A stretch of 25,540 nucleotides of DNA from a virus: positions 1 through 25,540 of the IMG/VR virus record IMGVR_UViG_3300001517_000005; one strand, 5' to 3'. Both the position numbers and the translations under genes were made by a program. A model generated the notes under the pieces. That model was given only the letters and a program-made list of their open reading frames with translations. It made no database searches and was not told the DNA's origin. Shown piece by piece: positions 5,217 through 5,551 of this stretch (the stretch's first letter is position 1; each line of letters starts with the position of its first letter).

Positions 5217-5246
5217 TAGTCTAAACTAACTCCTTTATATAATTTT

Positions 5247-5293
5247 CGTCCTATGTTCTACCCTCTGCGCGTTTAAGGCAAAAACATAGGACG
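5247..5293. repeat. Perfect 11-bp inverted repeat (CGTCCTATGTT, 25-nt spacer, AACATAGGACG) in the int-proximal non-coding region. Candidate attP arm, operator or bidirectional stem.
   Basis: Arms at 5247-5257 and 5283-5293, read directly. It lies in the largest non-coding gap (5217-5551), next to the integrase gene. Confidence 0.55.
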
Positions 5294-5479
5294 CTTATAA
5301 CCTCAAAACATAATACGAAAAGTCCAGTAATTCTAGGGGTTTTGGCCCCAAAAAGTCGGTATCTTATCAGCCGTAGGGCGTTAATTGACGGGATAATTTT
5401 GTTCCAAAATCTTCTAGATTTTTTCGTCTTTAAAAGCATTTATACCCCCAATAAATACTGGGTTTTTCGCATCTTTTAC

Positions 5480-5508
5480 TTGACTTTTCCCCTAACATCC
5501 TATATACT
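5480..5508 (+). promoter_or_regulatory. Sigma70/SigA-type promoter for the integrase gene
   Basis: TTGACT (5480-5485), 17-nt spacer, TATACT (5503-5508). AGGAG at 5536-5540 and ATG at 5552 lie downstream. Confidence 0.6.
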
Positions 5509-5551
5509 AAAATCATCCAAAACATAAGACGGATTAGGAGAAAATTGCATT

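Follow-up and report, generated by a model that had tools for sequence, protein, structure and literature searches.

How can a phage be translated when nearly all of its genes are interrupted by the stop codon TAG and its genome seems to carry nothing that reads this codon? The question is raised by the IMG/VR virus record IMGVR_UViG_3300001517_000005, of which positions 1 to 25,540 (the whole stretch of 25,540 nucleotides, called here the window) were analysed, and in particular by the intergenic region at 5217-5551, which an earlier note on this DNA had flagged as one of the few gaps large enough to hold a tRNA. We find that this genome encodes no tRNA, release factor or aminoacyl-tRNA synthetase, and that region 5217-5551, as predicted from its conserved motifs, is not a tRNA gene but the promoter/operator region of a tyrosine-integrase cassette. 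We put the probability that the suppressor is supplied conditionally in trans, in a Bacillota host that uses the standard code, at roughly 0.6.

The earlier note had taken the genome to be complete and recoded, and both points are borne out. The window termini, 1-150 and 25391-25540, are identical in a direct comparison over 150 nt, and since a Logan contig of the same genome (25,420 bp) has an overlap of just 30 nt, the repeat arises from overlap in the assembly of a circular or permuted genome. The complete genome is therefore 25,390 bp, circular or circularly permuted. Under the standard code its open reading frames (ORFs) are broken up, and reading TAG as sense restores products of 2,024, 1,082 and 761 amino acids; reading TGA as sense lengthens no ORF in the window. 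Genes in the window stop at TAA (11) or TGA (14) and none at TAG. When aligned with standard-code relatives, in-frame TAG codons fall on glutamine at 53 of 128 positions, and in the large terminase (TerL; 14292-15533, minus strand) at 9 of the 11 TAG codons in comparison with the standard-code relatives L002 and L003. The recoding to genetic code 15, in which these alignments predict TAG to specify glutamine, is real.

The number of in-frame TAG codons in the window varies with the choice of gene starts between 89 and 95, with 30 of them within one giant ORF of 3,033 amino acids. Glutamine is encoded by 95 TAG, 167 CAA and 32 CAG codons, a TAG share of 32%. We found no bias in the downstream context of TAG (+4 base, p=0.18) and no excess of TAG near the 3' ends of genes (4 observed, 3.75 expected), so that TAG behaves as an ordinary sense codon. 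Since it is this frequent and has no read-through context, its decoding must be general and efficient; by simple arithmetic, decoding at 50% per codon would leave the 30-TAG ORF with about 1e-9 of full-length product. Every minus-strand gene contains TAG, the replication initiator included, except those at 9299-9631 and 4424-4606, both of which also occur in standard-code relatives. The first in-frame TAG is at codon 42 of TerL, codon 54 of the portal gene and codon 75 of the DnaD-like initiator.

Nothing that could decode these codons was detected. In the window, ARAGORN reported no tRNA in its default mode and none on either strand in the relaxed mode (-ps) that the earlier note had recommended, a lone weak Ile(gat) within coding DNA at -ps90, and no CUA anticodon in its -mt mode or its -i mode at -ps80. 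Rfam cmscan at E<=10 on both strands of the window returned three noise matches, with no tRNA and no ribozyme family among them, theta/HDV-like ribozymes included, and when CUA was sought by a custom scan in 7-nt loops closed by a 5-bp stem, no non-coding site had U33 and a purine at position 37 (R37). Searches of all window proteins with Pfam, PHROGs and NCBIfam found no release factor (RF2 included), no aminoacyl-tRNA synthetase and no other translation factor. The central claim of the earlier note, the lack of a suppressor tRNA, release factor or tRNA synthetase, has thus withstood each of these methods.

The same is largely true of what it had said about non-coding DNA. Coding density is indeed very high (95.8%), and the 12 gaps of the window add up to 1,069 nt. 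Only four reach 100 nt, namely 5217-5551, 11431-11570, 16972-17169 and 17956-18079; the gaps had been listed correctly but for the third, which begins at 16972 and not at 16933. That none of the four contains a cloverleaf was confirmed with ARAGORN, Rfam and folding of both strands of each. The matches that the gaps share with relatives are only 17-44 nt long, the size of ribosome-binding sites (RBSs), promoters or terminators. On the minus strand, the gap at 11431-11570 contains, besides the RBS for the scaffold gene, the hairpin motif TAGGACAAACTTGTTCTA (11549-11566), that at 17956-18079 a second such hairpin, TAGGACAAAATTGTTCTA (18055-18072), with a terminator-like hairpin after the Tal gene, and that at 16972-17169 a long hairpin beside the DnaD-like gene; no tRNA is present in any of them. 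The 18-nt hairpin motif, TAGGACAAA[AC]TTGTTCTA, opens two of these gaps (11431-11570 and 17956-18079, minus strand) and has two copies in the window, against a chance expectation of none; it may serve for processing, as a terminator or as an operator. Each copy is preceded by a T-run and directly follows a stop codon, that of the Mu-F-like gene or that of Tal. The long hairpin in 16972-17169 (helices of ~19 and ~9 bp, a loop of ~50 nt, z=-5) adjoins an A/T-rich tract as well as the DnaD-like gene and is possibly a candidate replication origin. A further intrinsic-terminator-like hairpin with a T-run lies at 9928-10002 (minus strand), 3' of the major capsid gene.

Region 5217-5551 separates the minus-strand HK97-gp10-like tail-completion gene (4623-5216, 4 in-frame TAG codons), the first gene of the tail block to the left of the gap, from the integrase gene on the plus strand (5552-6490; 312 amino acids, stop TAA; Pfam PF00589, 2.5e-29). 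The motif AACATA[GA][GT]ACG is present in four copies in this region and in none elsewhere in the window. Copy 1, an inverted AACATAGGACG at 5247-5257 (minus strand), is ~25 nt upstream of the RBS of the tail-completion gene, and copies 2 (AACATAGGACG, 5283-5293) and 3 (AACATAATACG, 5307-5317) follow on the plus strand. A degenerate copy, GTAGGGCG at 5373-5380 (plus strand), aligns with ATAGGACG in L211, L213 and L214, three relatives with the same integrase cassette in the same location. The putative integrase promoter is of the sigma-70 type, TTGACT-17-TATACT at 5480-5508 (plus strand), and its -35 and -10 elements are kept in all four genomes. An inverted motif copy (5496-5503, minus strand) overlaps the -10, and another at 5521-5531 (plus strand) occupies an operator-like position just downstream of it, followed by the RBS AGGAG at 5536-5540.

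The stricter form ATAGGA[CT]G has 3, 3, 4 and 6 copies in the four genomes, all of them inside the gap. In a four-way alignment of these intergenic regions, 5-6 copies of the ATAGGACG motif and the -35/-10 elements are kept in position and the sequence between them has diverged, a pattern which argues for a protein-bound control region and not for a cryptic RNA gene. Among the family loci searched, relatives without an integrase of this type have no counterpart of the region. The first reading of the gap was therefore right in denying it a tRNA but missed that it is a divergent control region for the integrase. It is possibly also an attachment (att) site or a Cre/lox-like resolution site; the four-genome alignment contains no conserved non-motif core, and no attL/attR junction contigs were found. 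A GC-rich palindrome, GGGGTTTTGGCCCC (5336-5349), was considered as a T-arm remnant or att core and rejected, as it is not conserved in L211, L213 and L214.

When IMG/VR and metagenomes were searched with the portal and TerL, dozens of relatives came to light (family loci L001-L009, L052-L087, L132-L150 and L211-L215), many of them on contigs of ~25-26.8 kb; single-protein locus searches of IMG/VR with the integrase and with Tal gave no matches. The code of each relative was assigned by the in-frame stops within alignments of conserved proteins. They form one siphovirus family in which some members read TAG as Gln, some read TGA as Trp and others use the standard code. In a neighbour-joining tree of TerL, which has no support values and in which recombination is possible, 21 TAG, 5 TGA and 13 standard-code lineages (>=60% identity) are interleaved, with TGA recoding in at least three places. 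Relatives as close as 80% TerL identity to the window use the standard code. In standard-code members TAG is the stop of 0-1 of 9-22 genes (L132, L133, L134, L059, L084, L141); Borges et al. (bioRxiv 10.1101/2021.08.26.457843) proposed that recoding starts from such a TAG-depleted state.

No tRNA was found in the recoded members by ARAGORN or by Rfam at gathering thresholds, bar a pseudo-tRNA in L058; the recoded DNA scanned amounted to 242 kb (TAG) and 49 kb (TGA) in the first set alone. Nor was there a suppressor anticodon in 2.4 Mb of fetched loci. The L058 element (L058:1764-1836; Rfam match of 31.4 bits, missed by ARAGORN) resembles tRNA-Ala(GGC), with the 5' two-thirds intact and the T-arm and 3' acceptor degenerate. 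It sits within phage DNA, between Tal and a TAG-free integrase, and probably represents attP homology to a host tRNA-Ala gene. As a candidate suppressor it was dismissed, being an Ala(GGC) pseudo-tRNA without a convincing match in the window gap.

These data bear on whether the phage could encode an unconventional suppressor RNA, be it split, permuted, armless or embedded in coding sequence, that lies beyond the detectors. Borges et al. ascribed part of the gap in known suppressors to non-canonical phage tRNAs that escape detection, and the L058 element shows that ARAGORN can miss a degenerate tRNA-like sequence which Rfam finds. Set against this, Rfam at E<=10 gave no tRNA-like match on either strand of the genome, the mitochondrial and intron modes of ARAGORN gave no CUA anticodon, and no U33/R37 loop with CUA on a stem lies outside coding DNA. 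Moreover, promoters, terminators, hairpins and repeats account for the four large gaps, whose matches to recoded relatives are all short, and the one element that ARAGORN missed is an att-type pseudo-tRNA. Since the genome is clean and minimal and the lack of tRNA extends across a family with three codes, a hidden tRNA is unlikely in this family, and for the window we regard it as very improbable.

Genuine tRNA genes do occur around some relatives. In the standard-code relative L078, a 41-kb contig carries tRNA-Thr, tRNA-Met and tRNA-Val followed directly by an integrase (L078:262-1722), which suggests the end of a prophage at a cluster of host tRNA genes, similar to what is published for Topaz and Garnet prophages. 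Near the distant standard-code phages or prophages L026, L028, L113, L115 and L209 (36-37% TerL identity) there is a tRNA-Gln(UUG), which in L113 (14653-14727) and L115 (5573-5647) is accompanied by a tRNA-Thr, lies a few kb downstream of TerL and is apparently inside the phage. These were not accepted as suppressors, as the anticodon is not a suppressor anticodon and the carriers are standard-code; it is possible that such genes are raw material for Gln suppressors.

A phage protein might instead reprogram host translation without a new tRNA, either by inhibiting or depleting release factor 1 (RF1), so that a near-cognate tRNA-Gln reads UAG, or by modification of a host anticodon. Modification of host tRNAs or machinery was also raised by Borges et al., and the window has small ORFs without assigned function that might serve (16750-16971, 15530-15802, 4424-4606 and 9299-9631). 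Across the family, however, no gene tracks the code: none is shared by all recoded members and at the same time lacking in standard-code members. The sole candidate for such a marker was a 57-amino-acid helix-turn-helix (HTH) protein (17782-17955), found in nine TAG-recoded relatives and absent from the standard-code relatives L003 and L055, but the TAG-recoded L058 and L064 are without it. Any such protein would also have to be made first, and since standard-code relatives have both of the TAG-free minus-strand genes as well, no recoding-specific gene is available for this. Near-cognate decoding would furthermore have to exceed ~95% per codon for the 30-TAG ORF. We therefore consider reprogramming by a phage protein unlikely.

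The strongest indication of the code of the host comes from the integrase. None of its 13 Gln codons is TAG, against 32% elsewhere in the window (P=0.006). In a protein search, integrases of 72-79% identity came up on phage contigs of ~26-27 kb, and those of L211, L213 and L214, ~76% identical to that of the window, likewise have no internal TAG. In L214 and L215 the integrase gene (L214:10001-10996, L215:1893-2888) has TAG at codon 313, where its homologues have TAA, so that TAG stops the integrase in these genomes, which use TAG as Gln from 50 to at least 70 times outside it. A code-15 gene caller had extended this integrase to 331 amino acids. In the TAG-recoded L058 and L064, two unrelated integrase modules are TAG-free together with their small neighbouring ORFs. 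Taken together, TAG-free integrases and a TAG integrase stop argue for production of the integrase in cells that terminate at TAG.

It might be objected that the integrase is a recent foreign gene which is TAG-free by default: its third-position GC content (GC3) is 0.40 as against 0.29, and the closest relative, L001, has no integrase. This explanation is weakened by the TAG stop and by the orthologues, ~76% identical, that occupy the same site and are TAG-free too. In L001 (~80% nucleotide identity) the slot of window 5217-6702 holds a gene for a BspA-type leucine-rich-repeat protein on the structural strand (L001:9578-10486), and the integrase cassette is thus a lineage-specific replacement within the structural block.

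Production of the integrase where TAG terminates argues against a host that itself reads TAG as Gln, lacking RF1 and having a native tRNA-Gln(CUA), with the phage simply sharing its code. Such a host would account for the absence of tRNA throughout the family and for the presence of TAG in all minus-strand genes but two small ones, replication initiator included. It would also have a parallel in the code-4 phages, of which 22 of 27 in INPHARED infect code-4 Mycoplasma or Spiroplasma (Cook et al., PMC11210395), and the relative L136, with TGA=Trp, is likewise without a tRNA. On the other hand, integrases have stayed TAG-free across ~24% divergence and in three unrelated types, TAG is absent from the lysogeny modules of L058 and L064, and L214/L215 use TAG as the integrase stop. 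Close relatives are standard-code and occasionally use TAG as their stop. To our knowledge, no TAG=Gln bacterium has been described. Published Topaz and Garnet prophages, finally, reside in standard-code hosts (Borges et al.). The earlier note had seen in the TAG-free integrase a weak argument against a native-TAG host; the orthologues, the TAG stop and the unrelated modules support and strengthen it, and we judge such a host to be quite unlikely.

We favour supply of the suppressor conditionally in trans, and propose the following. In a standard-code cell, host RNA polymerase would use the conserved integrase promoter, and the integrase alone would be translated fully, other sizeable genes being cut at their first TAG. 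TAG would then act as a translational lock on lytic growth, to be opened only by an efficient Gln-inserting tRNA(CUA) from a source outside the genome. The likeliest source would be a co-resident or co-infecting recoded phage or prophage with a suppressor, and a close second a conditionally expressed suppressor on the host chromosome; of the weight given to supply in trans, we would assign about two thirds to the co-resident or co-infecting element and the remaining third to an inducible gene of the host. A conditional source is favoured because a constitutive host suppressor would leave the integrases no reason to avoid TAG. The sources that the earlier note had listed (a host-encoded or co-resident suppressor, a native-TAG host or an unrecognised mechanism) are the right set, although none of them is provable here.

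Several observations weigh against supply in trans and the lock. No suppressor donor was identified, and for a lineage so diverse and widespread it would seem risky to rely on a second element. The failure of a constitutive host suppressor to explain the avoidance of TAG by the integrase is to be listed here as well. An integrated copy of the phage or its sublineage was not found, all contigs being at most 27 kb, and lysogeny, and hence the lock model, is for this reason inferred for this phage rather than demonstrated. The exact integrase was found only on contigs of at most 25.6 kb or on short contigs collinear with the phage, with no host junction, and the search for a host contig or attB through the integrase flanks, as the earlier note had suggested, came to nothing, all contigs with the same integrase being phage-collinear. 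A TerL-profile search of 185,579 species genomes gave a best match of only 44% (Sporosarcina), with rumen and gut metagenome-assembled genomes of Ruminococcus, Oscillospiraceae and Acutalibacteraceae (Oscillospirales) at 35-38%. The closest cultured phages are Clostridium phages (~49% TerL identity), and the host is probably a member of the Bacillota.

If supply in trans is taken further, the family might be regarded as "code parasites": small temperate phages that never own a suppressor, whose lytic programme is locked by TAG or TGA and which develop only with a suppressor tRNA from another element, be it a recoded phage or prophage of large size or an inducible allele of the host. We offer this as a tentative idea that is more doubtful than not. 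Were it true, the flips among TAG=Gln, TGA=Trp and the standard code would track the available donor, and the genetic code would be an inter-phage dependency or sensing signal and not a self-contained timing device.

As to the remainder of the genome, the window is a small, presumably temperate siphovirus of a gut/rumen phage family, with a GC content of ~35% and a GC skew that is negative throughout. All genes are on the minus strand but one, the integrase. With TAG read as Gln, profile scans with Pfam, PHROGs and NCBIfam identified a packaging and head set (small terminase TerS, TerL, an SPP1-type portal at 12913-14346 on the minus strand with 6 in-frame TAG codons, a Mu-F-like head protein, scaffold, capsid and head-tail connectors) and a tail set (tail tube, tail-completion proteins, Dit C-domain, Tal and a collagen-like fibre), together with an HNH endonuclease, a holin and the DnaD-like initiator, the last by a weak match. 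The window does not fit a phage satellite of the PICI or cf-PICI type, which would be short of some virion genes and take over the structural proteins of a helper, as TerS, TerL, portal, scaffold, capsid, connectors, tube, Dit, Tal and fibre are all encoded. The giant ORF fills the tape-measure slot and accounts for 36% of the genome. It spans the assembly junction on the minus strand (3178->1, 25390->19467), its 5' part being at 1-3178 (ATG at 3178) and its 3' part at 19467-25540 (TAA stop at 19467-19469), and has SH3_3 as its sole Pfam match; versions in relatives range from 1,100 to 3,015 amino acids. Its end abuts the start of a 121-amino-acid ORF that matches the Dit C-terminal domain only. 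The profile scans recognised no tape-measure protein or endolysin in the window genome, and no repressor gene was recognised in it. Two holin-like genes are in unusual positions: one at 12458-12847 (PHROG, 2e-30), between the portal and Mu-F-like head genes, and one at 6487-6702 (minus strand), which encodes a small membrane protein, is convergent with the integrase and belongs to the cassette common to L211, L213 and L214.

The earlier note was wrong in its premise that a recoded phage is as a rule large and brings its own tRNA(CUA). Small temperate recoded clades, Garnet, Amethyst and Topaz, have been described, among them TAG-recoded phages of 22-34 kb with TAG-free integrases, and TAG suppressors were found in only 40% of TAG-recoded phage genomes, release factors and synthetases rarely (Borges et al.). 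A suppressor tRNA (Sup-CTA) was found in 52% of code-15 phages by Cook et al., who called the mechanism "not fully understood"; a suppressor has elsewhere been treated as essential (Kienbeck et al., PMC10879173). With suppressors in only 40% or 52% of genomes, their absence is common, not exceptional. Borges et al. suggested that recoding serves to switch between lysis and lysogeny and possibly also to sense co-infecting phages via their suppressor tRNAs. Our understanding of recoding is unchanged by the window, because both the phenomenon and the pattern of TAG-free integrases had already been published. New here is a three-code siphovirus family of ~25 kb in which recoded members have no tRNA and one integrase ends in TAG. 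How suppressor-less recoded phages decode their stop codon is an acknowledged open question (Borges et al.; Cook et al.), for which the window provides a clean minimal case, being complete, with ~1 kb of non-coding DNA and each gap accounted for. The question shifts to who supplies the suppressor.

By size, TAG recoding and TAG-free integrase, the window matches the published description of the Topaz clade, with which it was compared by description only. Topaz phages are 22 +/- 3 kb, have Oscillospiraceae hosts and a unidirectional skew, and keep the integrase among their few TAG-free genes, and the published clades mix codes 11, 15 and 4 (Borges et al.). Shared by Topaz/Garnet and the window are the small genome (Topaz examples are 23.7-25 kb), the use of TAG for Gln in lysis and structural genes, the TAG-free integrase, the link to Bacillota (Oscillospiraceae), for the window a probable one, the monotonic GC skew and the mixed codes within a clade; the window differs in having its integrase inside the structural block on the opposite strand and in that no integrated copy of its sublineage was found. 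The large code-15 phages (crAss-like, Lak, Agate) also have TAG=Gln, but concentrate it in late genes and carry their own tRNA(CUA) and sometimes RF2, an aminoacyl-tRNA synthetase or a theta ribozyme, whereas the window has none of these and has TAG in nearly all genes. Like the window, the code-4 phages of Mycoplasma and Spiroplasma have no suppressor tRNA, but they do not need one, and the window differs from them in that its integrase avoids TAG and a sister genome stops the integrase with TAG. Supply in trans has a laboratory counterpart in amber-mutant phages grown on supE (glnV44) Escherichia coli, in which genes with in-frame UAG are translated only with a Gln-inserting tRNA(CUA) that the host charges. 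These constructs contain a single amber codon or a few, suppressed at 10-30%, whereas the window has ~90 natural TAG codons that need near-complete decoding. A recoded phage without a tRNA is thus a known but still unexplained situation, of which the window is an unusually clean new example.

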